From the NCBI GenBank assembly GCA_964572555.1, contig CAZNHG010000001.1, positions 1-52,959 on the forward strand: DNA of 52,959 nt, in the 5' to 3' direction. The position numbers and the translations under genes are program-made. The notes under the pieces were generated by a model. It was not told where the DNA came from. It ran no database searches and saw only the letters and a program-made list of their open reading frames with translations. Shown here one piece after another: positions 26,227 through 37,385 of this stretch; the stretch's first letter is position 1, and each line of letters opens with the position of its first letter. This DNA comes from an uncultured Devosiaceae bacterium (GTDB lineage Bacteria; Pseudomonadota; Alphaproteobacteria; Rhizobiales; Devosiaceae).

Positions 26227-27480
26227 ATGACACTATTCAACGGCCGCGTAGCCACGCGCGTGATCGCCGCCGCGTCGGTGACCGCGATGATGACGACAAC
26301 GGCGTTTGCTCAGGACATGACCATGTGGGTGCGCGAGAGCGCCGCCGATCCCGGTCAGCTCATGGTCGATCTGTGGAACAGTTCGCATGACACCCAGATC
26401 GAACTGACAGCCATTCCGGACAACCAGGTGGTAACCAAGCTCGCCACGAGCGTGCGTGCCGGTGATGCGCCGGACCTGGTCTCGTTCGACCTGATCTACA
26501 TGCCCGACTTCATGCGGGCCGGTTTCCTGACGGATCTGACCGACCAGCTCGAGGCCGATCCGAACTACGAAACCATGGTTCAGGCCTACAAGGACATCGC
26601 CACCTACGAGGACCGCATCTACGGCGTCGGCTTCACCCCGGACGTCTCGATCCTGGTGTGGAACAAAGAGCTGTTCCGCGAGGCGGGGCTCGATCCCGAG
26701 CAGCCGCCCGAATCCATCTACGAGATTCACGAGATGGCCACCAAGATCGGCGCACTGGGCGACGATACCTACGGCTTCTATTTCGCCGGCTCATGCCCGG
26801 GCTGCAACATCTTCGTCACCTCGCCCCTGATGGTGGCGGGCGGCGCCGAGATGCTGCCGCGCAGTGGCGACGATGCCGCGCTTGAAGGCGAGGCCGTCTT
26901 CGAGGTGCTCGACCAATACCGCCAGATGTGGGAGGAGGGGCTTATACCCGAAAGTGCCGAGGTCGACACCGGCGAGAACTTCGTCTCCGCCTTCACGCAG
27001 GGCAATATCGGCATCACCGGCTCGGGCGGCTTCCTCCTGTCCCTGATGGAGCGCCAGTTCCCCGACTTCGATTATGGGGTGACGCTTCTGCCGGGTCTCG
27101 AGCCGGGGCAGGTTTCCGGGTTCGTGGGCGGTGACGTCGTCGCCATCCCAGAGGGCACGCCCAACGAGGAGGCCGCCCGCGAGTTCATTGCCTGGGTGCT
27201 CAGCGACGAGGCGCAGCTCGAGGGGCTGGCCAAGAACTCGATCCTGACCACCCGGACGGACCTGGCCGACAACGAGTACTTCGAGGGCAACGAGAAGGTG
27301 CAGGCCACTGCAAGGGCGCTCGAGGCCGGGTACGTGCCCGCCGTCTTCCACTTCGCGACCATGGTCAACTCGGATTCGAGCCCGTGGATCAACATGATCC
27401 AGCGCGCCGTGTTCGATGGCGACGTTCAGGCTGCGATCGACGATGCGCGTCAGCGCATGCTCGATATCGCCAGCCAGTAG
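26227..27480 (+). CDS. carbohydrate ABC transporter (CUT1) substrate-binding protein
   Basis: 417 aa. Signal peptide ...MMTTTAFA/QD. Extracellular solute-binding family 1 pattern. GAGGGGAGG RBS. Confidence 0.88.
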   Translation: MTLFNGRVATRVIAAASVTAMMTTTAFAQDMTMWVRESAADPGQLMVDLWNSSHDTQIELTAIPDNQVVTKLATSVRAGDAPDLVSFDLIYMPDFMRAGFLTDLTDQLEADPNYETMVQAYKDIATYEDRIYGVGFTPDVSILVWNKELFREAGLDPEQPPESIYEIHEMATKIGALGDDTYGFYFAGSCPGCNIFVTSPLMVAGGAEMLPRSGDDAALEGEAVFEVLDQYRQMWEEGLIPESAEVDTGENFVSAFTQGNIGITGSGGFLLSLMERQFPDFDYGVTLLPGLEPGQVSGFVGGDVVAIPEGTPNEEAAREFIAWVLSDEAQLEGLAKNSILTTRTDLADNEYFEGNEKVQATARALEAGYVPAVFHFATMVNSDSSPWINMIQRAVFDGDVQAAIDDARQRMLDIASQ

Positions 27481-27543
27481 TATCTGCGACAAGGGCACCC
27501 GGCCGTTGGTACGGCCGGGTGCCGACGCTGCGGGGAGGGGCGA

Positions 27544-28419
27544 ATGCTTGCCACCAACAACAAGCTGATCGGACTGATGTATCTGGCGCCGGCTTTGCTG
27601 TTTGTCGCCGTGTTCGTCTTCTATCCGCTCAGCCAGCTCATCTACATCTCGATGACCAGCGAGTCGCTTCTGGGCGGCGGCGAGTTCGTCTGGTTCGACA
27701 ACTACATTCGGGCCTTCACGGATGCCGATTTCTGGAGTTCCTTCTGGTTCACTGTCCAGTACACAGCCTATATCACCCCGGTGCTGGTGGGGCTCGGTTT
27801 TCTGCTCGCGCTTCTGACCAGCGACAACCGGCCGGTCATCCAGGTTACCCGCGGCGTCGTGTTTCTGCCCGTGGTCATCGGCTTCGCCAGTTCGAGCCTG
27901 CTGTGGGTCTGGCTGTTCGACCAGCAGGTCGGGCTTTTGAATAAGTTTCTCGTCGATATCGGTGTGCTCGCCCAGCCATGGGTGTGGTTCAACAAGGCGC
28001 ATCTGGGCCTGTTCGCCGTTGTCGTTTCCGTGACCTGGAAGGTGGTGGGGCTCGGCATGATCCTGATGATCGCCGGAATCCAGACGATCAGCCAGGACGT
28101 GATCGAGGCCTCGATGATCGATGGCGCGCGCTATTGGCAGCGCGTGCGCAAGATCATCATTCCGCTCGCCGCCCGGTCGATCTTCCTGGCGACACTCATC
28201 GTCGTCATCGGCTCCATGCTCGCCTTCGATCAGTTCTACCTGATGACCGGCGGCGCCCCGCGCGGACAGACCTTCACGTCCGTTTACTGGATTTACCAGA
28301 ACTCGTTCGTCTACTTCAAACTGGGCTATGGCAGTGCGCTGTCGATCATTCTCACGGTCGTGATCATGATGATGGCCGCCCTGCAATTGTTCCTGCAGCG
28401 CCGGGGAGTGGCCAAATGA
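27544..28419 (+). CDS. carbohydrate ABC transporter permease (MalF/UgpA-like)
   Basis: 291 aa, 6 TM. EAA loop EASMIDGARYWQRVRKIIIPL. Confidence 0.88.
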   Translation: MLATNNKLIGLMYLAPALLFVAVFVFYPLSQLIYISMTSESLLGGGEFVWFDNYIRAFTDADFWSSFWFTVQYTAYITPVLVGLGFLLALLTSDNRPVIQVTRGVVFLPVVIGFASSSLLWVWLFDQQVGLLNKFLVDIGVLAQPWVWFNKAHLGLFAVVVSVTWKVVGLGMILMIAGIQTISQDVIEASMIDGARYWQRVRKIIIPLAARSIFLATLIVVIGSMLAFDQFYLMTGGAPRGQTFTSVYWIYQNSFVYFKLGYGSALSIILTVVIMMMAALQLFLQRRGVAK

Positions 28420-29324
28420 GCGCGACGACAACCATCGACACCGCGCCCGCGCCAATCGCCAAGGGCGGCGCCATCGAAGCGCAGGCCGTGGGCGGCAGCC
28501 GGCGCGTCCGCTATCTCGTCGGTGCCCTGTGCATTTTCATCATCGCCTTGATGCTCGCGCCGTTGGTTCTGTCGTTCTTTGCCTCGATCAAGACGCCGGA
28601 CGAGGCGGGCGCAGTACCGCCGACCTATCTGCCGCACGGGGTCAGCATCGAGAACTACATGACGGTGCTGACCTACCAGGCGGGCCTGTGGACCTATGTC
28701 TTCAATTCGCTCCTCGTGGCGTTCTTCACGATCGCACTGTGCCTCGGGCTCTCGGTACCGGCCGGCTATGCGCTCGCGCGCTTCGCCATTCCCGGCAAGG
28801 AGGTGCTGTTCCTCATGCTCCTGGCCAGCATGATGATCCCGTATCAGGCCATGCTGACCCCGCTCTACCTGATGTTCACGGAACTGGGCCTGACGAACAC
28901 TCATCTCGGGCTGGCGATCGTGCATACGATCCTGCAATTGCCGTTGTCGGTCTACCTGATGCGCAACAGTTTCGAGGGAATCCCGAAGGAACTCGAGGAA
29001 GCGGCCGTCATGGACGGGTGCAGCTCCTTGCAGATCCTCAGGCGCGTGTTCATGCCGCTGGTGATCCCGGGCATGGTCACCGTGTCGCTGTTCGCCTTCA
29101 TCATGTCGTGGAACGAGTTCATTGCGGCTCTGGTGTTCATGAGCAGCGAGAACAGCTTCACCGTGCCGGTGATGCTGACGGGCGTTTCCACGGGCATTTT
29201 CGGGGTCGTCGACTGGGGTGCGCTGCAGGCGGGCGTGATCGTCTCGATCGTGCCCTGCGTGGCCATCTACCTGATGTTGCAGCGCTACTACGTGTCGGGC
29301 CTGATGAGCGGCGCAGTGAAATAG
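28416..29324 (+). CDS. carbohydrate ABC transporter permease (MalG/UgpE-like)
   Basis: The ATG at 28416 overlaps the upstream stop (ATGA). EAA loop EAAVMDGCSSLQILRRVFMPL. The N-terminal part of the track ORF is out of context. Confidence 0.88.
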   Translation: MSATTTIDTAPAPIAKGGAIEAQAVGGSRRVRYLVGALCIFIIALMLAPLVLSFFASIKTPDEAGAVPPTYLPHGVSIENYMTVLTYQAGLWTYVFNSLLVAFFTIALCLGLSVPAGYALARFAIPGKEVLFLMLLASMMIPYQAMLTPLYLMFTELGLTNTHLGLAIVHTILQLPLSVYLMRNSFEGIPKELEEAAVMDGCSSLQILRRVFMPLVIPGMVTVSLFAFIMSWNEFIAALVFMSSENSFTVPVMLTGVSTGIFGVVDWGALQAGVIVSIVPCVAIYLMLQRYYVSGLMSGAVK

Positions 29325-29341
29325 GAGCAACGGACGCCGCC

Positions 29342-30412
29342 ATGACCGATTCAGACCCCAACTCTCCGGAGCCACAGGAGCCGCGTGCCGGCCGCTCGCA
29401 TGCCGGCCCGACCATCCGCGATGTCGCGCGGGCGGCCGAGGTGAGCATCGGCACCGTCTCCAAGGCCCTGAACAATTCCGGGACGCTACGCCAGGAGACC
29501 CGGGATCGCATTGTCGCGGTCGCGCGGGAGCTGGGCTTTCGGCCCAACGACCTGGCGCAGGCCCTGCACCGGGGGCAGAGCTTTACCGTGGGGCTGATCT
29601 CCAACGACAGCTTCGGGCGTTTCACCATGCCGATCATGGAGGGTCTGGAACGGGAGCTCGCGGCGGAGCGGATCGCAGTGTTTATGTGCAACGCCACGGA
29701 CGATCCGGGACGCGAGCGCCAGCACCTCGAGCAGCTCATGGGCAAACGGGTCGACGGGCTGGTGTTCACCGCCCGCCGTGCCGACCGGCGCCCGAGCGTC
29801 AGCGTCAATCTCGGCGACCTGCCGACGATCTTCGTGTTCTCGCAAAGCGACGATCCGGACTCCTTTTGCCTGTTGCCCGATGACGAGGGCGGGGTACGGA
29901 TGGCGACCGAACATCTGATCGCGGCGGGCCGGACGCGCATTGCCCATGTGACGGGACCGGAGCGGTTCGAGGCGGTCACGCTCAGGCGCAAGGGTTATGC
30001 GGCTGCGCTGAAGGCCGCGGGCCTGAATGCGCCGGGGAACTATTTTCTGTCTGGCAGCTGGTCCGAGCATTGGGGGCGCGAGGCGGTCGAGAAGCTGTTC
30101 ACGGGGCCGGACAGGGCGCCCGACGGGATCATCTGCGGGAACGACCAGATCGGCCGCGGCGTGCTCGAGGCCCTGCGCGACCGCGGCGTCGCAATGCCGG
30201 ACGAGGTCGGCGTGGTCGGCTTCGACAACTGGGAAGTCATGGCCGAAGCGGCCCGTCCCAGGCTCACCAGCGTCGACATGAATCTTTACGAACTGGGCCG
30301 TGAGGCCGGACGCCGGATCATCCGCATGATCGGCGGCGAACAATTCCACGGCGTACTGCGGCTGCCCTGTTCCCTTGTGGTGCGGGAAAGCTGTGGTGCG
30401 CAGGCGATCTGA
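29342..30412 (+). CDS. LacI family transcriptional regulator
   Basis: Internal ATG of track ORF 28529..30412. HTH PTIRDVARAAEVSIGTVSKALNN followed by a periplasmic-binding-fold effector domain. Confidence 0.9.
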   Translation: MTDSDPNSPEPQEPRAGRSHAGPTIRDVARAAEVSIGTVSKALNNSGTLRQETRDRIVAVARELGFRPNDLAQALHRGQSFTVGLISNDSFGRFTMPIMEGLERELAAERIAVFMCNATDDPGRERQHLEQLMGKRVDGLVFTARRADRRPSVSVNLGDLPTIFVFSQSDDPDSFCLLPDDEGGVRMATEHLIAAGRTRIAHVTGPERFEAVTLRRKGYAAALKAAGLNAPGNYFLSGSWSEHWGREAVEKLFTGPDRAPDGIICGNDQIGRGVLEALRDRGVAMPDEVGVVGFDNWEVMAEAARPRLTSVDMNLYELGREAGRRIIRMIGGEQFHGVLRLPCSLVVRESCGAQAI

Positions 30413-30452
30413 CAGAACGAAAAACGGGGGCCCGACAGGGCGGAGACGTTAC

Positions 30453-32354
30453 ATGCGCAAGTTTGCACCGGTTGATTTCACCAAGGTCACGCTGACCGGC
30501 GATTTCTGGAAGGAGCGGCTGGAGACCGTGCTCACGAGCACCATCCCTAGTCAGTACAACAAGCTCGTCGAATACAACATGATCGACGAGCTCGACATTC
30601 ACCAGCCGCCGCCACCCCTGACCATTCCGGCCAACAAGAGCGGTTTCACCACCCAGATCTTCTGGGATTCGGATATCGGCAAGTGGATCGAGGCGGCGAG
30701 CTATGCGCTGGCGCACCGGCGCGACGAGAAGATTGAGGCGCAGATCGACGAGATCGTCGACAAGCTGGAGCGGGCCCAGCTTGAGGACGGCTACCTCAAC
30801 ATCTGGTACATCTCGCGCGAGCTGGACAAGCGCTGGAGCAATCTGCGCGACAATCACGAACTCTACAATGCCGGCCACCTGCTCGAGGGCGCGATCGCGT
30901 ATTATCGGGTGACGGGGCGGCGCAAGCTGCTCGACGTGATGGAGCGTTATCTCGATCACATCCGGGCCACCTTCGGCACGGGAGACGGGCAGAAGCGCGG
31001 ATATCCGGGGCATCAGGAAATCGAGATCGGGCTGGTCAAGCTCTATCACCTGACCGGCGAGCGGAAGCAGCTCGACCTTGCCGCCTACTTCATCGACGAG
31101 CGCGGCAGCGAGCCGCACTATTTCGACGAGGAAGCCAGGGCGCGCGGTGCCGATCCGGCGAGCTATCACTTCGGCACGCACGAATACAGCCAGTCGCACA
31201 AGCCCGTGCGCGAGCAGGACAAGGTGGTCGGACACGCCGTGCGGGCCATGTACATGTACACGGCCATGGCCGACCTTGCCGCCGATCTCGACGACGACGC
31301 GTTGAGGCGGGCTTGCGAGGTGCTCTGGGACGACGTGACCTCAACCCGCATGTATGTCACCGGCGGGTTCGGGCCCTCGGCGTCCAACGAAGGCTTCACC
31401 ACCGACTACGACCTTCCCAACGACACGGCCTATGCCGAGACCTGCGCGTCGGTCGCCATGATCTTCTGGGCCCAGCGCATGCTCAATCTCGATCTCGATG
31501 GCCGCTACGCCGACATCATGGAGCTGGCGCTGTTCAACGGCGCGCTGTCGGGCCTGTCGCGTGACGGCGAGCACTATTTCTACGAGAACAAGCTCGAGAG
31601 TGACGGCAGCCATCGCCGGTGGGAGTGGCATCCGTGCCCGTGCTGCACCATGAATGCGTCGCGGCTGGTGGCTTCTGTCGGCGGCTATTTCTATTCGGTG
31701 GGCGACAACGTCATCGCCATGCATCTTTACGGCGGCAATACCGCGACACTCGAGATGAACGGGCGGCAGGTGACACTTGCCGAGGAGAGTACTTATCCGT
31801 GGTCCGGCGCGATCCGTATCACTGTCGAGCCGGAAGGGAGCGGTGCCTTCAGTCTCAAGCTGCGGATTCCGGAATGGGTGCAGGGTGCGACGGCCGCCGT
31901 GAACGGCGAGAAGATCGAGGTCTCCGCTCAGTCAAAGAACGGGTACCTGGATATCACGCGGGACTGGCAGAAGGGCGATGTCGTCGAACTCGACCTGCCC
32001 ATGCAGCCCCGGCGCCTGTTTGCCAATCCCCAGGTCCGCATGGATCTCGGACGCGTGACGCTGCGGCGCGGGCCGCTGGTGTTCTGCCTCGAGCAGGCGG
32101 ACAATGCGGATGCGCCGGTAACCCGGCTGACCCTGCCGCGCGACGCCGAAATCACCACAAAACAAAGCGATCTGTTTGACGGCATCGTAACGCTACAGGC
32201 CCGGGGAGGGGCGACGAGCGCGCAAGACTGGGGCAACACGCTCTATCGCACGACGCCGCCCGAGCAGGAACCTGCAACACTCACGGCCATTCCGTATTAT
32301 CTGTGGGCCAACCGCGAACCGGGACCGATGACTGTCTGGATCCGTGAAGAGTGA
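30453..32354 (+). CDS. glycoside hydrolase family 127 (beta-L-arabinofuranosidase, DUF1680/HypBA1-like)
   Basis: ATG at 30453 with a GGAGA RBS; 633 aa. Cys-rich catalytic/Zn motif WEWHPCPCCTMNASR, plus the HELYNAGHLLEGAIAY and GYPGHQEIE blocks typical of GH127. Confidence 0.88.
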   Translation: MRKFAPVDFTKVTLTGDFWKERLETVLTSTIPSQYNKLVEYNMIDELDIHQPPPPLTIPANKSGFTTQIFWDSDIGKWIEAASYALAHRRDEKIEAQIDEIVDKLERAQLEDGYLNIWYISRELDKRWSNLRDNHELYNAGHLLEGAIAYYRVTGRRKLLDVMERYLDHIRATFGTGDGQKRGYPGHQEIEIGLVKLYHLTGERKQLDLAAYFIDERGSEPHYFDEEARARGADPASYHFGTHEYSQSHKPVREQDKVVGHAVRAMYMYTAMADLAADLDDDALRRACEVLWDDVTSTRMYVTGGFGPSASNEGFTTDYDLPNDTAYAETCASVAMIFWAQRMLNLDLDGRYADIMELALFNGALSGLSRDGEHYFYENKLESDGSHRRWEWHPCPCCTMNASRLVASVGGYFYSVGDNVIAMHLYGGNTATLEMNGRQVTLAEESTYPWSGAIRITVEPEGSGAFSLKLRIPEWVQGATAAVNGEKIEVSAQSKNGYLDITRDWQKGDVVELDLPMQPRRLFANPQVRMDLGRVTLRRGPLVFCLEQADNADAPVTRLTLPRDAEITTKQSDLFDGIVTLQARGGATSAQDWGNTLYRTTPPEQEPATLTAIPYYLWANREPGPMTVWIREE

Positions 32355-32383
32355 GCGCGACCGGCCTTGAAGGGGAGGAGACC

Positions 32384-33463
32384 ATGGCACACGTCGAACT
32401 GAACCATCTGCACAAGCAATTCGGCGCCGTCGAGGTCATCCGCGACCTCAGCCTCGGGGTTGAGGCCGGCGAGTTCTGTGCGCTGCTCGGCCCGTCGGGC
32501 TGTGGCAAGTCCACGCTGCTGCGCATGATCGCGGGACTGGAAACCGTGACGTCGGGAAGCGTGGTGATAAACGGGCGGGACGTCACCCAGGTGCCGCCCG
32601 CCAGGCGCCAGATATCGATGGTGTTCCAGTCCTATGCGCTCTATCCGCACATGACGGTGCGCCAGAACATCTCGTTCGGCCTCGATATCGCGGGTGTGCC
32701 CAAGCAGGAGATGAACAAGAAGACCGACGAGGCGGCGCAACTGCTGCAGCTCGATGCGCTGATGGACCGCAAGCCGGCCCAGCTTTCGGGCGGCCAGCGC
32801 CAACGCGTCGCCATCGGACGGGCGCTGGTGCGCGATCCGGAGGTCTTTCTGTTCGACGAACCGCTGTCGAATCTCGACGCCAAGCTGCGCGTTCAGATGC
32901 GGCTGGAGCTCGCCAAGCTTCACCAGGAGATCGAGACGACGATGGTCTATGTCACCCACGACCAGATCGAGGCGATGACGCTGGCCAACAGGATCGTGGT
33001 GCTCGACGAGGGGCGGATCGCGCAGGTCGGCACGCCGCTCGATCTCTATCACCGGCCGGAGAACAAGTTCGTGGCCGCCTTCATCGGCTCGCCCGCCATG
33101 AACTTCATCAATGTGGCCGCGACGGGTGTCGACGGCCGGCGTGTGAAGATCGACCTCGGCGCCGGAGCGGTCGAGGTCGACATGCGGCACGACGGCAGTG
33201 GTGCCGGTTCGGACCTGGAACTCGGCGTGCGTCCCGAACATCTGACACCGACCAATCCGGGGGCGGTCGATGCCGTGCTCGACGGCAAGATCAGCATGCT
33301 GGAACGACTGGGGAACGTGACGATCCTTTATGTCGATACGGCAGCGGGCTCGTTCGTGGTGGAGGGCGACAGCGAGTCGACGGCGCAGATCGGGGATGCG
33401 GTGGGCTTGGCGTTCGATACCAAGCGCACGCATCTGTTCGCGCCGGACGGGGCGGTTCTCTAG
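32384..33463 (+). CDS. ugpC: sugar ABC transporter ATP-binding protein (UgpC/MalK type)
   Basis: ATG at 32384 after a GGGGAGGAG RBS. Walker A GPSGCGKST, signature LSGGQRQRVAIGRAL, Walker B FLFDEPLSNLD, and a C-terminal TOBE-like domain. Confidence 0.9.
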   Translation: MAHVELNHLHKQFGAVEVIRDLSLGVEAGEFCALLGPSGCGKSTLLRMIAGLETVTSGSVVINGRDVTQVPPARRQISMVFQSYALYPHMTVRQNISFGLDIAGVPKQEMNKKTDEAAQLLQLDALMDRKPAQLSGGQRQRVAIGRALVRDPEVFLFDEPLSNLDAKLRVQMRLELAKLHQEIETTMVYVTHDQIEAMTLANRIVVLDEGRIAQVGTPLDLYHRPENKFVAAFIGSPAMNFINVAATGVDGRRVKIDLGAGAVEVDMRHDGSGAGSDLELGVRPEHLTPTNPGAVDAVLDGKISMLERLGNVTILYVDTAAGSFVVEGDSESTAQIGDAVGLAFDTKRTHLFAPDGAVL

Positions 33464-33535
33464 TTTCGTGAAGACGGGAAGGTGGCTGGAAGGGGACGGC
33501 TAGCGCCTTGAAAACACGGCAGAGTTTTCCGAAAT

Positions 33536-33552
33536 CTTGGAACATTTCTAAG
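33536..33552 (+). promoter_or_regulatory. ICE/Irr-box-like motif, copy A (CTTGGAA-CAT-TTCTAAG)
   Basis: 3 mismatches to TTTAGAA-N3-TTCTAAA. It sits 29 nt upstream of the -35-like hexamer. Confidence 0.35.
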
Positions 33553-33580
33553 GTATAAGTCATTGTAATATATACGCTTC

Positions 33581-33608
33581 TTGACTTGGTGCAGGGCGCC
33601 GCTATAAC
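33581..33608 (+). promoter_or_regulatory. sigma70-like promoter, copy A (TTGACT-N16-TATAAC), now upstream of the AraC gene
   Basis: The hexamers and spacing are conserved in both repeat copies. Confidence 0.45.
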
Positions 33609-33652
33609 GGGGCAGTCCTGTTTGGGTCTTGAGCCCAGGTTGGGAAGTGCAC

Positions 33653-33688
33653 ATCACCTCCACCCCGCGCCCGGCCGATGCGGCGGGC
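33653..33688 (+). pseudogene. relic of the fhuF 5' end (ATC ACC TCC ACC CCG CGC CCG GCC GAT GCG GCG GGC = ITSTPRPADAAG)
   Basis: Matches the first 12 codons of the real fhuF at 35500 (MTSTPRPAATAG). The start codon is mutated ATG->ATC, and the frame ends at a TAA overlapping the AraC start codon (33716-33718). Confidence 0.5.
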
Positions 33689-33717
33689 CAACGCAGAACG
33701 AACTATACGGATTGGTA

Positions 33718-34662
33718 ATGTACACGACTTCTGAACCGGTGGGTTCCATTGCCCGGCCGGACATCGATGCACTTTTACAATCCGTGTGCGCCTTGGCCGA
33801 AGGTGAAGGCGTGACAGTGACACCGCTGCCCAATGTCTGGGTGATGAAGATGAGCCAGCAGGCACCCTATCATCGAGGGCGGAATGCCGGCATGTCCCTG
33901 GCGGTTGCCGCCTCCGGCCAAAAATCGGTCGTGATCGGGAACGGCCATCTCGTTAACGACGCTAGCCGGTATCTGGTGCTGCATGGCGAACAGTCCTATG
34001 ACGCGGTTGTTGAAGCCTCGGAGAATGAGCCCTACATCGCGCTCAAGCTGCAATTGCCGCCGGAACTGGTGGCAAGAACGCTGATCGAGCTTGCCGACAC
34101 CGGATATGCGCCATCGAATGCGGCTTTGACATCTCAGCCGACGGCTTTCTGCGACGATCTGACGACAGACTTCGCCGCCTCTTTGCTACGCTTGGTCCGT
34201 TCGTTCGACGATCCCGCCGACTGTCGGATGCTGGCCTCTCCCTGTCTGCGCGAGATCTGCTACAGGCTGCTGCGCTCCGATGCCGCCGGCATGCTCAGGG
34301 CGTCCGTCACGCGCGAAGACACGAAACTCATCGCGGCCATGCGCCTTATCGAGGACGACGCCACGGGCAGCCTGACCGTGGCGGATATCGCATCGAATGT
34401 GGCGATGAGCCCGTCGCATTTCGCGCATCGGTTTCGTTCCTGCTTCGGTGTATCGCCCATACGTTACCACAAACAGATCCGTCTCGAACGAGCGCGGCTT
34501 TTGCTCCTGGACACGGCTGCCACGGTTTCCATGGCAGCCGAGGAGGCAGGCTACGCCAGCGATGCCCATTTCACGCGGGACTTCAAGGCGCTGTTCGGGC
34601 TTTCTCCACGCGCCTATGCCCGCAACATGCAGGCGAAACTTGCCCCGGTCGGCAAACGCTAA
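33718..34662 (+). CDS. AraC family transcriptional regulator (AraC_N-type ligand domain plus a double HTH)
   Basis: 314 aa from the ATG at 33718. C-terminal HFAHRFRSCFGVSPIRYHKQIRLERARLLL and GYASDAHFTRDFKALFGLSPRAY. Confidence 0.85.
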   Translation: MYTTSEPVGSIARPDIDALLQSVCALAEGEGVTVTPLPNVWVMKMSQQAPYHRGRNAGMSLAVAASGQKSVVIGNGHLVNDASRYLVLHGEQSYDAVVEASENEPYIALKLQLPPELVARTLIELADTGYAPSNAALTSQPTAFCDDLTTDFAASLLRLVRSFDDPADCRMLASPCLREICYRLLRSDAAGMLRASVTREDTKLIAAMRLIEDDATGSLTVADIASNVAMSPSHFAHRFRSCFGVSPIRYHKQIRLERARLLLLDTAATVSMAAEEAGYASDAHFTRDFKALFGLSPRAYARNMQAKLAPVGKR

Positions 34663-34780
34663 GCGGCTTTTTGTCTTTCGCAGGATCAGGCATTCTTTCC
34701 GAAGAAACCGGTATGGGCGCGATGTCCGGCCAGTCTTATCAGCACCAGATGTTTAATGCTGAAAGACCGGAAGGAAAGAA

Positions 34781-35068
34781 ATGTCGGTTCAAGTTGTCGT
34801 TCAATTCAAAGCCCTGGCGGAGAAGCAGGCCGCGTTCGAAGCGATTATGGAGTCGGTCAAGGCCGATCTGCCGAAGGTGCCCGGCTGCCTGGGTGTTTCC
34901 GTTATGCAGGATATCGACGATCCCTGCAGATTTACGCTGGTCGAGACCTGGGAAAGCCAGGACAGGCACAAAGCCCACATTGGGAAGCTGATCGCGGATG
35001 GGACGTGGGCCGGCATTGAGAGTCATCTCGATGACCAGCCGGGTTCGGGCTATTTCCGGCAAGTATGA
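34781..35068 (+). CDS. antibiotic-biosynthesis-monooxygenase (ABM) domain protein, YgiN-like putative quinol monooxygenase
   Basis: 95 aa. Ferredoxin-like ABM pattern VVVQFK...GCLGVSVMQDIDDPCRFTLVETWESQDRHKAH. GGAAGGAAAG RBS. Confidence 0.8.
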   Translation: MSVQVVVQFKALAEKQAAFEAIMESVKADLPKVPGCLGVSVMQDIDDPCRFTLVETWESQDRHKAHIGKLIADGTWAGIESHLDDQPGSGYFRQV

Positions 35069-35160
35069 CGCAACAGGTATGTCGAGGCGTCCGGCGGTCA
35101 ACCGACCGTTCCGGCGGCGGCACGGGATGACCGGATGCCTTCAACTGTGGCGTCTATGCC

Positions 35161-35192
35161 CGTCTCCTGCGCCCGTGACGGCGCAGGAGACG
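35161..35192 (+). terminator. perfect 13-bp stem hairpin (CGTCTCCTGCGCC-cgtgac-GGCGCAGGAGACG) downstream of the ABM gene
   Basis: Read directly. There is no U tract, so the terminator function is uncertain. Confidence 0.35.
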
Positions 35193-35255
35193 AGGGTCCG
35201 CGGCTTCACGGCATCGGTCCTTCTGTGAGAAAGGGGCAGGCGCGGCATAGGCGCG

Positions 35256-35297
35256 AAGCACACACACCTGTTCGCGCCGGACGGGGCTGTGCTCCAG
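35256..35297 (+). pseudogene. relic of the last 13 codons of a ugpC-type ATPase gene (KHTHLFAPDGAVL, stop replaced by CAG)
   Basis: AAG CAC ACA CAC CTG TTC GCG CCG GAC GGG GCT GTG CTC here, against AAG CGC ACG CAT CTG TTC GCG CCG GAC GGG GCG GTT CTC TAG at 33422-33463. No ATPase gene body lies upstream. Confidence 0.6.
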
Positions 35298-35382
35298 GGA
35301 CAGGACCTGGCGTATGCGGAAAGGGCGGAGCGGAGAGGCACCCGCCTTAGCGCATTGAAAAACTGGTAGAGTTTCCTTCGAG

Positions 35383-35399
35383 TTTGGAACCTTTCTAAA
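35383..35399 (+). promoter_or_regulatory. ICE/Irr-box-like motif, copy B (TTTGGAA-CCT-TTCTAAA)
   Basis: 1 mismatch to TTTAGAA-N3-TTCTAAA. It sits 29 nt upstream of the -35-like hexamer. Confidence 0.5.
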
Positions 35400-35427
35400 C
35401 AATAAGTCATTGTAATATATACGCTTC

Positions 35428-35455
35428 TTGACTTGGCAAAAGGCCCCGCTATAAC
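35428..35455 (+). promoter_or_regulatory. sigma70-like promoter, copy B (TTGACT-N16-TATAAC), upstream of fhuF
   Basis: Same hexamers and spacing as copy A. It lies 45 nt upstream of the fhuF ATG. Confidence 0.45.
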
Positions 35456-35499
35456 GGGACTGTCCTGTTTGGGCCTTGAACCCAGGTTTGGAAGTGCGC

Positions 35500-36375
35500 A
35501 TGACCTCTACCCCGCGTCCTGCCGCTACGGCGGGCGAACTGTCACACAGCCTCGACGCGATAATCGCCGGTCTTGCCAGGCGGGTCGACGCGGTGTCGCC
35601 TGTGCGGCCGGGGGATCGGGATGGTGCCGTCGCCATTGCACGGGTTGCGTCCGCGGGAACGCCTTACGCTGCCGAGTGGCTGGCGGGCGAGGGGGCAGCG
35701 GTTCCCGGCGCGGACGACCGGACACGGGCCGCGTTCCTGATCGGGCGTCTCAGTTGGACCCTTGCGGGGTTCTGTGCCGGAGCGAGCCTGACGGGTGTGT
35801 CGCTGCCGCTCTTCGGGCCCGAGGACGTGTTCATCGCGCCCGAGCGCTTCACCTGGCACTACCAGGGTCAGTCGGGAGAGGCCATACGCTATCGCCTGTC
35901 TGTTGCCGGTGCACCGGAGACGGCCGCCGGCGACACCGGCCGGATCGAGACCATCCGCAAGAGCCTGGAGGCGGTTCATGCGCCGCTGATCGACGCGGTC
36001 GCAGCGCGAACCGGACTGTCGCGCGGTGCGCAGTGGCGCATCGTGGCGGACTCGGTCGCCGGCGCGTTTCTTCATGTCGGCAACCAACTTGGGTGCGCGG
36101 AACTGGCCATGGAAAGGGGGCAGGCGATACTGGCAGCGCCAAACTCGCCGCTGCGCAATCGAAAGACCGGTTATGTGCGCGTCGAGCTGCCCGATCCCGC
36201 CGGCGCGGAGCGGGTGTTGTTCGCCGACTGGTACTGCAGCCGTGGCGGGTGCTGCCGGTATTACTCGGTGCCCGGCGGCTCCTTCTGCGCGACGTGCGTT
36301 CTGCGCAAGCCCAGGGATCGCGATGCGCTCCTGCGGGCCGACCTCGAACGACGCTACCTGCTGGAAGCGCCGTGA
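35500..36375 (+). CDS. fhuF: siderophore-iron reductase, FhuF family (2Fe-2S)
   Basis: 291 aa from the ATG at 35500; the track start at 35476 is a TTG. The C-terminal CC-x10-C-x2-C cluster motif is CCRYYSVPGGSFCATC. Confidence 0.8.
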   Translation: MTSTPRPAATAGELSHSLDAIIAGLARRVDAVSPVRPGDRDGAVAIARVASAGTPYAAEWLAGEGAAVPGADDRTRAAFLIGRLSWTLAGFCAGASLTGVSLPLFGPEDVFIAPERFTWHYQGQSGEAIRYRLSVAGAPETAAGDTGRIETIRKSLEAVHAPLIDAVAARTGLSRGAQWRIVADSVAGAFLHVGNQLGCAELAMERGQAILAAPNSPLRNRKTGYVRVELPDPAGAERVLFADWYCSRGGCCRYYSVPGGSFCATCVLRKPRDRDALLRADLERRYLLEAP

Positions 36376-36410: not shown

Positions 36411-37385
36411 ATGAAGTTTCTGTCCGTGCTGGCCGCGCTTGCTCTGGCCGTGGTTCCGGCCGCTGCGCACGCGCAGGACGCATTCCCCGTCGCTATCGAG
36501 CATGTTTACGGTTCCACCACGATCGAGGAGGCTCCCGAGCGTATCGTGACGTGGGGATGGGGCGCGCATGATGCGGCGATCGCGCTTGGCGCGGTGCCGG
36601 TCGCCATCCCGTATTTCGATTATGGCGGCGACGAGAACGGCATGCTGCCCTGGACGCTGGAAGCGCTTCGCGAGCGCGGCGCGGAGATGCCGGGCACGCT
36701 CGACAACGTCAACGACGAGCCGCCCGTCGAGCAAATCGCAGCGGCACGGCCGGACCTGATCATCGCGGTCTATTCGGGATTGACCGAGCAGCAGTACAAC
36801 ACGCTGAGCCGGATCGCGCCCGTGGTGGCCTATCCCGAGGAGCCCTGGGCCACACCGTGGCGCGATGTCATACGACTGACGGGCGAGGCGCTCGGCAAGG
36901 CGGACGAAGCTGACACGCTGGTAGGCGGCCTCGAGAATTTCATGGCGGCAGAGGCGAAAAAGAGGCCGGCCCTTGCCGGCACAACCTTTGCGGGGGTCGC
37001 GAGCTACAACGAAGAGATTGCCGTTTACGCCGAACGCGATCCGCGCATGGAGTTCCTGGAGGACCTGGGCATGCAACTGGCACCGAGCGTGACCGAGCTG
37101 GCACCGGAGAACGGCTCGTTCTTCTATTCTCTGAGCCTCGAAAGGGCGGACCAGCTCGTCTCGGATATCCTGATAGGTTATTTCGCGACGGAAGATGCCG
37201 GCGATGCCTTCTTCGGGCAGCCCACCGTCGAAGTCATGCCGCAGGTCGAGCAGGGTGCGATTGCCGCAGTCGTCGGCGAGGCCCTTGTCAGTTCCATCGG
37301 TCCGCCGACAGCATTGTCGCTCGAGTGGGGGCTTCCGCGCTATCTCGATATCGTGGCCGAGGCAGCGCGGCAGGCCGGTGACTAG
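36411..37385 (+). CDS. iron-siderophore ABC transporter substrate-binding protein (no cognate permease or ATPase nearby)
   Basis: 324 aa from the ATG at 36411, inside track ORF 35433..37385. Signal peptide MKFLSVLAALALAVVPAAAHA/QD. The ERIVTWGWG...RPDLIIAVYSG pattern fits class-8 (FhuD/FepB-like) binding proteins. Confidence 0.85.
   Translation: MKFLSVLAALALAVVPAAAHAQDAFPVAIEHVYGSTTIEEAPERIVTWGWGAHDAAIALGAVPVAIPYFDYGGDENGMLPWTLEALRERGAEMPGTLDNVNDEPPVEQIAAARPDLIIAVYSGLTEQQYNTLSRIAPVVAYPEEPWATPWRDVIRLTGEALGKADEADTLVGGLENFMAAEAKKRPALAGTTFAGVASYNEEIAVYAERDPRMEFLEDLGMQLAPSVTELAPENGSFFYSLSLERADQLVSDILIGYFATEDAGDAFFGQPTVEVMPQVEQGAIAAVVGEALVSSIGPPTALSLEWGLPRYLDIVAEAARQAGD

Follow-up and report, generated by a model that had tools for sequence, protein, structure and literature searches.

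In the 52,959-nt contig CAZNHG010000001.1 of an uncultured Devosiaceae bacterium (the window; repeat counts and box searches cover these ~53 kb), a pair of genes for an AraC-family regulator and a protein of the ABM family (antibiotic biosynthesis monooxygenase-like) is enclosed by two diverged direct copies of one gene junction, the one between the ATPase gene of a sugar ATP-binding cassette (ABC) transporter and fhuF, the gene for a FhuF-like ferric-siderophore reductase. The reading we prefer, with a probability of roughly 0.58, is that a copy of this junction which had already diverged elsewhere was joined to the resident one by homology-guided recombination, which would have duplicated the junction and placed the AraC-ABM pair behind a captured copy of the fhuF promoter.

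The duplicated junction

The segments 33422-33692 (copy A) and 35256-35539 (copy B) align end to end over 284 columns with 75.7% identity (gapped BLAST, E = 1.4e-53; MAFFT also joins both blocks), exactly within the boundaries proposed in an initial annotation of this DNA; a repeat scan divides them into two collinear direct-repeat blocks, 33422-33463/35256-35297 (42 nt, 86%) and 33501-33692/35348-35539 (192 nt, 82%), and gapped BLAST detected no third copy of the unit within the window. In both copies the final 14 codons of the ATPase gene, the intergenic promoter region and the initial 13 codons of fhuF form one contiguous block (Table 1), and the relic peptides translate as had been claimed. 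The similarity is not that of a short promoter core alone; it includes both coding stubs, and its ends are sharp. Copy A carries the real ATPase end (KRTHLFAPDGAVL, then the stop codon) and a dead fhuF start, in which ATG has become ATC; copy B carries an orphan ATPase end, whose stop codon is now CAG and which is not preceded by a gene body, together with the real, ATG-initiated fhuF start (MTSTPRPAATAGE). The translations agree with the initial annotation in this assignment as well. The orphan tail KHTHLFAPDGAVLQ equals the real one at 12 of 13 residues, in a part of the protein that otherwise varies greatly among 120 homologues. The left boundary of copy B is sharp: ten codons before the orphan end the frame is interrupted by a TGA, and sensitive local alignment of 35069-35255 with the 3' body of the ATPase gene gave a score no better than that of 34% of shuffles. 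Since both stubs and the intergenic region are contiguous in each copy, the unit derives from a locus in which fhuF lay next to the ATPase gene; judged from this arrangement, AraC-ABM must be a derived insert within a former ATPase-fhuF junction.

Table 1. Features of the duplicated junction, its insert and its flanks (window coordinates), and identity of copies A and B by segment
Feature	Coordinates	Strand	Remarks
MalK/UgpC-type sugar ABC transporter ATPase	32384..33463	+	Pfam ABC_tran/OB_MalK/TOBE_2; NCBIfam UgpC subfamily above cut-off
Repeat copy A	33422..33692	+	271 nt; real ATPase end, spacer, promoter region, dead fhuF start
Irr-box (ICE)-like palindrome, copy A	33536..33552	+	CTTGGAACATTTCTAAG; 11/14 consensus positions
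Identical core, copy A	33555..33589	+	35 nt, ATAAGTCATTGTAATATATACGCTTCTTGACTTGG; putative -35 CTTGAC at 33580-33585
Putative -10 box, copy A	33602..33607	+	CTATAA; 16 nt after -35; read from alignment
Dead fhuF start, copy A	33653..33692	+	ATC ACC TCC ...; ITSTPRPADAAGQ; ATG to ATC
Insert between repeat copies	33693..35255	+	1563 nt
AraC-family regulator	33718..34662	+	314 aa; AraC_N + HTH_18 (Pfam)
Direct-repeat motif, AraC-ABM intergenic region	34677..34725	+	TCGCAGGATC ... CCG[C/A]AG[G/A]A; 5-locus alignment
ABM-family protein	34781..35068	+	95 aa; Pfam ABM E 4e-14; PDB relatives 3gz7, 4dn9
Structured non-coding stretch	35150..35254	+	12-bp perfect hairpin 35162-35191 inside 11-bp outer stem 35150-35160/35244-35254
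Repeat copy B	35256..35539	+	284 nt; orphan ATPase end, spacer, promoter region, real fhuF start
Orphan ATPase end, copy B	35256..35297	+	KHTHLFAPDGAVLQ; stop TAG to CAG
Irr-box (ICE)-like palindrome, copy B	35383..35399	+	TTTGGAACCTTTCTAAA; 13/14 consensus positions
Identical core and putative fhuF promoter, copy B	35402..35454	+	putative -35 (35427-35432) and -10 (35449-35454)
FhuF-like ferric-siderophore reductase	35500..36375	+	Pfam FhuF_C 24.2 bits vs cut-off 20.5
Periplasmic iron-siderophore binding protein (fhuP)	36411..37385	+	Peripla_BP_2; 35 nt after fhuF
Identity A vs B, ATPase end			86%
Identity A vs B, spacer after stop codon			62%; first 36/49 nt essentially unalignable
Identity A vs B, ICE-like box			82%
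Identity A vs B, promoter core			87%
Identity A vs B, 5' untranslated region			87%
Identity A vs B, fhuF start			82%

The stubs also bear on the possibility that the two segments go back to ancient paralogous regulatory regions, or belong to a repeated family of intergenic elements, with coding relics that are coincidental. It is common for bacteria to have homologous promoters before genes that are not related (PMC3575422), but here the aligned region takes in 42 nt of the ATPase reading frame and 40 nt of that of fhuF, with both frames kept and the differences mostly synonymous, and there are only two copies in 53 kb, similar at E = 1e-53; the relic codons refute this explanation, to which we attach next to no probability.

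Origin of the two copies

Under the preferred reading the ancestral order would have been the sugar-transporter ATPase gene, then an iron-regulated promoter, then the fhuF-fhuP operon, and a promoter-less AraC-ABM module (regulator, its own operator and the ABM target gene) would have entered this junction via recombination guided by junction homology, the incoming DNA bearing a second, already diverged junction copy from a closely related lineage. This may have happened by either of two routes. In route (a) a circle carrying the junction and AraC-ABM would have been inserted through one RecA-type crossover, a Campbell-type insertion-duplication; in route (b) a linear fragment of the order [AraC-ABM - truncated ATPase end - promoter - fhuF...] would have been anchored by homologous recombination in fhuF, its second joint, at fhuF codon 13, being illegitimate (homology-facilitated illegitimate recombination). 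The product of either would be [ATPase end-P-fhuF'] AraC-ABM ['ATPase end-P-fhuF], where P is the promoter; the ATPase gene and fhuF would stay intact, the native AraC promoter would be lost and AraC would be driven by the spare copy of the fhuF promoter. The initial annotation had taken the layout for the product of Campbell-type integration or of tandem duplication with insertion at the junction; the layout does fit, but a Campbell-type event is not singled out, as the collections searched contained no close relative of this Devosiaceae lineage. One-sided homology-facilitated illegitimate recombination, a route that the initial annotation did not list, accounts for the layout just as well. 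The latter mechanism has a precedent (PMC3240628), and duplications are known to arise during transformation (PMC3784515).

An identical layout would result from a duplication in situ, that is, a single event in the organism's own lineage which left two initially identical copies, now ~76% identical, either by a template switch at fhuF codon 13 to an AraC-ABM template and back at ATPase codon -14, or by tandem duplication with insertion at the junction. Purifying selection would then hold the functional stubs, regulatory selection or gene conversion the promoter cores, and the relics would decay. What separates the two accounts is the history of the relics: routes (a) and (b) imply a period of divergence as functional orthologues that preceded the joining of the copies, the in-situ route implies neutral decay. 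The 27 relic codons contain 13 differences (seven synonymous, four non-synonymous, two in a start or stop codon), eight of them in third positions (P = 0.035 against uniform placement). Under a model of in-situ duplication in which one copy of each stub stays functional, the expected number of first- and second-position differences is 9.8 when the neutral yardstick is taken from third positions and 12.8 when it is taken from the spacer; five are observed (P = 0.057 and P = 0.006, respectively). The ATPase stub differs at 6 of 42 positions, versus 27 of 72, plus indels, in the adjoining spacer (P = 0.01); the relic stubs have no indels, and the spacer beside them is partly unalignable. An argument from third-position changes, namely that both copies evolved as coding sequence in separate lineages, had already been made in the initial annotation; the bias is there, but it is weaker than was implied, with P = 0.006-0.06 when set against the in-situ model.

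In favour of a duplication in situ it can be said that a third-position bias is expected there too, as half of the divergence would fall in the still-coding copies (the value of 0.057 being the one obtained with the third-position yardstick), and that the relics bear disabling changes typical of decay, in the start codon of one and the stop codon of the other. Palindromic structures are known to promote template switching, and a strongly structured palindromic stretch adjoins the right junction. Against it stand the few first- and second-position changes in the relics, their freedom from indels despite the spacer beside them, the 12 of 13 residues kept in the orphan ATPase tail, and the requirement for two precise switches or, in the tandem variant, for an insertion exactly at the duplication junction. 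Taken together, the template-switch and tandem variants appear less likely than the joining of a pre-diverged copy, and the relic-codon data lean, without deciding the matter, towards routes (a) or (b).

The structured stretch itself is part of the 187 nt between the ABM stop codon and copy B (35069-35255), which fold far better than shuffled sequences (z = -4.26); the right arm of its outer stem adjoins the first base of copy B. Within the window the stretch, like its hairpin, occurs once; it matches no Rfam family and is without homology to the related modules. The stretch could be a terminator-like insulator or an aid to an illegitimate joint.

The AraC-ABM module

Homologues of the AraC regulator are 66-77% identical, and in every context fetched the 95-aa ABM gene follows, with neighbours that differ each time. 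The pair is found in a Rhizobium plasmid and in at least six unrelated contexts which are metagenomic or from metagenome-assembled genomes (MAGs), together L002-L007, L011 and L012; L002 is the megaplasmid of Rhizobium sp. 32-5/1, and L003/L004, L005, L006/L007, L011 and L012 are the further contexts. At the DNA level the homology to other loci amounts to 70-80% and is confined to 33710-35088. In four other loci AraC-ABM was found to lack flanking direct repeats, which makes the duplicated junction a peculiarity of the locus in the window. Composition sets the pair apart as well: G+C at third codon positions (GC3) is 0.71 in the AraC gene and 0.70 in the ABM gene, versus 0.832 ± 0.034 in 32 window genes (minimum 0.763), which puts both more than 3 standard deviations below the mean; in other hosts, of lower G+C content, the GC3 of AraC-ABM is 0.65-0.73 and close to that of its neighbours there.

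These properties could be thought to reveal a mobile element (an integrative island, a transposon or a unit mobilised by an insertion sequence (IS)) of which AraC-ABM is part, the repeats being attachment sites or target-site duplications; direct repeats do flank the insert, and the module is known from many contexts. The 1563-bp insert, however, encodes only AraC and ABM, and neither in it nor in the window genes scanned for domains was an integrase, transposase, recombinase or IS-like end found, as the initial annotation had noted for integrases, transposases and IS ends. Furthermore, the repeat scan detected no terminal inverted repeats at the insert ends, repeats of 271 and 284 nt with 76% identity are unlike attachment sites or target-site duplications, and the module lacks flanking repeats in the four other loci. 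A mobile element is thereby effectively refuted, and we give it only a very small probability.

Between the AraC and ABM genes a direct repeat, TCGCAGGA...CCGCAGGA, is kept across five loci (the window, L002, L003, L005 and L006) which are otherwise 70-80% identical. This TCGCAGGATC...CCGCAGGA repeat is probably the regulator's operator or the promoter of the ABM gene, and an operator-like repeat at this place makes the pair a self-contained module of a regulator and its target. The motif is absent from the repeat units; control of fhuF by AraC via such an operator was considered and rejected on this ground.

Upstream of AraC, the closest modules (L003/L004/L011) have in common a box, GCCGGATTGTAAA.CAGGGCGC.ACCATCT, which is missing from the window, where the non-repeat DNA between the fhuF relic and the AraC ATG amounts to 25 nt; the native upstream region of AraC is missing. 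With so little DNA of its own and without the upstream box, AraC would depend entirely on copy A, or on read-through out of the sugar operon, for its transcription. The initial annotation had placed AraC behind a duplicate of the fhuF promoter, which these data bear out as to position, the activity of that promoter being predicted.

The dead fhuF frame (VH-ITSTPRPADAAGQRRTNYTDW, then stop) continues to a TAA at 33716-33718, the last base of which is also the first of the AraC ATG (TAATG), a layout typical of translational coupling. An in-frame GTG two codons 5' of the dead fhuF start coincides with the ribosome-binding site. The overlap could be due to chance or could be the remnant of a coupled leader peptide.

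The promoter region

Conservation within the repeat is uneven, being low in the spacer after the ATPase stop codon and high in the region just before fhuF (Table 1). The longest identical run of 35 nt (33555-33589 = 35402-35436) is longer than expected from permutation of matches and mismatches (P = 0.002) and includes a putative -35 hexamer. The hexamers CTTGAC and CTATAA and their spacing are identical in copies A and B, and 5 of the 16 spacer bases between them differ; CTTGAC-N16-CTATAA is the putative promoter in both copies, and selection seems to maintain it in each. Directly upstream lies a palindrome resembling the Irr box (ICE) of Rhizobiales, with the consensus TTTAGAA-N3-TTCTAAA (PMC1698941); the sole matches to this consensus in 53 kb are those in the two repeat copies, with 1 mismatch in copy B and 3 in copy A, where 0.07 matches are expected by chance. 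An ICE upstream of the -35 hexamer is in a location compatible with positive control (PMC1698941), and the box of copy B is just 5' of the putative -35 hexamer of what looks like a siderophore-utilisation operon. Control of copies A and B by iron and Irr, as at the known Irr/ICE iron-uptake promoters of Rhizobiales (PMC1698941), is predicted. There is no irr gene within the window, no Rfam family was found in 33300-35700, and by eye no RirA-type TGA-N9-TCA box was seen in the repeat units.

A stronger version of the argument can be formulated, according to which both junction copies are live, selectively kept, iron-responsive promoters of the Irr/ICE type and the junction was imported from a sister lineage without a mobile element; it must be called speculative and is probably not correct in full. 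If it were, a redox- or electrophile-type AraC-ABM module would have been recruited into an iron-starvation regulon beside fhuF-fhuP, and the locus would be a rare case of bacterial promoter reuse 'caught in the act', the whole junction with both gene stubs having been imported by homology-guided recombination.

Search for relatives and points that weigh against import

A number of observations weigh against the import of a pre-diverged junction or against promoter capture. Neither an empty site nor a donor junction was found in the genome, metagenome, protein and plasmid collections searched; metagenome scans with a 27-nt core and with a degenerate THLFAPDGAVL pattern both gave 0 matches, and among 5.8 billion proteins there are no FhuF homologues above 41%. 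In the nearest sugar operons (ATPase 78% and 76% identical in amino acids) the downstream gene is a convergent GntR gene, not fhuF. The donor order needed for route (b), with AraC-ABM beside a truncated ATPase end, was not observed, and a circle or fragment with junction and module could itself have formed only after an illegitimate joining in the donor, so that the primary joining is pushed back rather than explained. The codon statistics comprise 27 codons and 13 differences and are borderline with respect to the in-situ model, and the relic stubs could be constrained otherwise, for example as the 5' untranslated region of AraC or as upstream promoter DNA. As to the promoter, the identical core could stem from a short gene-conversion tract instead of selection, and promoter and ICE box are matches to consensus sequences only. 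The scan for strict sigma-70 promoters and intrinsic terminators called none; CTTGAC-N16-CTATAA was missed because the rule requires a T at the last position of the -10 hexamer.

In the plasmid collection the AraC-ABM part alone was matched, with nothing for 35069-35560. The exact-protein look-up of FhuF returned no record, and the scan of genome contigs with FhuF returned one locus, L001, of an uncultured Devosia MAG (39% identity).

Comparison with known systems

The layout most resembles Campbell-type single-crossover integration as used for insertion-duplication mutagenesis in the laboratory, where a non-replicating circle carries a chromosomal fragment: as there, the insert lies between two direct copies of one segment, a dedicated recombinase is not needed, and both neighbouring genes are intact because the duplicated segment takes in the end of one gene and the start of the next. 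Unlike the laboratory case, the event in the window is a natural one without a vector backbone, and the circular intermediate is hypothetical; the low identity of the copies (76%) implies either an old event or an incoming copy that was homeologous.

Homology-facilitated illegitimate recombination was reportedly described by de Vries and Wackernagel in 2002 as requiring one homologous anchor and one illegitimate joint. It would explain how a short foreign module enters a chromosome without homology on one side, a single new junction in the recipient being sufficient (PMC3240628). The weak similarity at the left joint of the window is compatible with a joint at microhomology; such microhomology as a finding was rejected, since ungapped similarity to L003/L011 is about 52-55% over 29 nt and too weak to call. 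Reported events of this kind mostly delete recipient DNA, whereas the window keeps the duplicated anchor.

Putative mobile promoters, as surveyed by Nijveen, Matus-Garcia and van Passel (PMC3575422), are sequences shared, at 80% identity or more and over 50 nt or more, by the upstream regions of non-homologous genes of the same genome. The two copies in the window fall within this definition (192 nt at 82%, with a 54-nt core at 87%; the downstream genes encode an AraC_N regulator and a FhuF-like protein), and agree in part with the positional window of the survey (-150 to -50 of both genes), the overlap with the shared part being ~36 nt. As in promoter capture, for which passages of the same survey cite the Cit+ rnk-citT capture in E. 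coli, an incoming gene without its own promoter sits behind the copy. Unlike mobile promoters, the copied block retains stubs of both flanking genes and is a whole-junction block, not an element, and it exists as a single tandem pair around an insert, not as a dispersed family. The means of promoter movement are listed as unknown in the survey (PMC3575422); the coding stubs of the window record a copying mechanism which is usually invisible to surveys of promoter reuse.

The locus is a natural scar like that of an insertion-duplication, functionally a case of promoter capture or reuse, and no new kind of system; its structure is clean but ordinary, mildly instructive and unsurprising to a specialist. 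It illustrates that a horizontally mobile regulator-target pair can be gained without harm to either neighbouring gene and can take over a ready-made, probably iron-regulated promoter. For annotation it advises caution, as the stubs, of 14 and 13 codons, are relics and should not be called as genes. Two predictions follow from it: expression of AraC-ABM should parallel that of fhuF, and rare recombination between the 35-nt identical cores could remove the module.

The flanking genes

The ATPase gene, the final 14 codons of which fall within copy A (the database version of the protein has 359 aa), is the last gene of an operon of the order substrate-binding protein-permease-permease-LacI-GH127-ATPase (26227-33463), with the GH127 glycosidase at 30450-32354. 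The name ugpC, used in the initial annotation, is right as to the family and should be read as a label at that level; the operon which ends with this gene is one for sugar uptake with GH127. The nearest ATPase homologues are from Devosiaceae (Devosia nitrariae, 78%; Pelagibacterium halotolerans, 73%), and the sugar operon is syntenic in L008-L010 (D. nitrariae and a JGI MAG). Upstream of it there are a YCII and an ECF sigma factor gene in L008-L010, and a thiolase and a PAS-LuxR gene in the window; as the operon is syntenic but both flanks differ, it was relocated in one of the lineages. A local rearrangement was considered, given that YCII and ECF sigma genes lie beside the Devosia sugar operon and also near AraC-ABM in L003, and was rejected because the sigma factors are 42% identical and hence paralogues.

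The FhuF-like protein has the C-terminal 2Fe-2S motif CC-x10-C-x2-C (CCRYYSVPGGSFCATC in translation). It is an outlier, in that its best match among the 5.8 billion proteins is 41% identical and the ATPase and the AraC regulator reach 77-78%. Its gene probably shares one operon with the Peripla_BP_2 gene, beyond which MltG, YicC and Gmk are encoded. The fhuF homologue of L001 differs from fhuF of the window in that its upstream region has a TGA-N9-TCA palindrome instead of an ICE-like box: a perfect palindrome, AACATGA-TAAGTCAAC-TCATGTT, is found at 1502-1524, 16 nt before the ATG. We take TGA-N9-TCA to be the form of RirA boxes. The same upstream region has the octamer ATAAGTCA in common with the identical core of the window repeat. 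The other genes of the window belong to the chromosomal core (ilvH, pdxJ, metA, flagellar genes, rsmA, pdxA, surA, lptD/F/G, pepA, holC and ndk).

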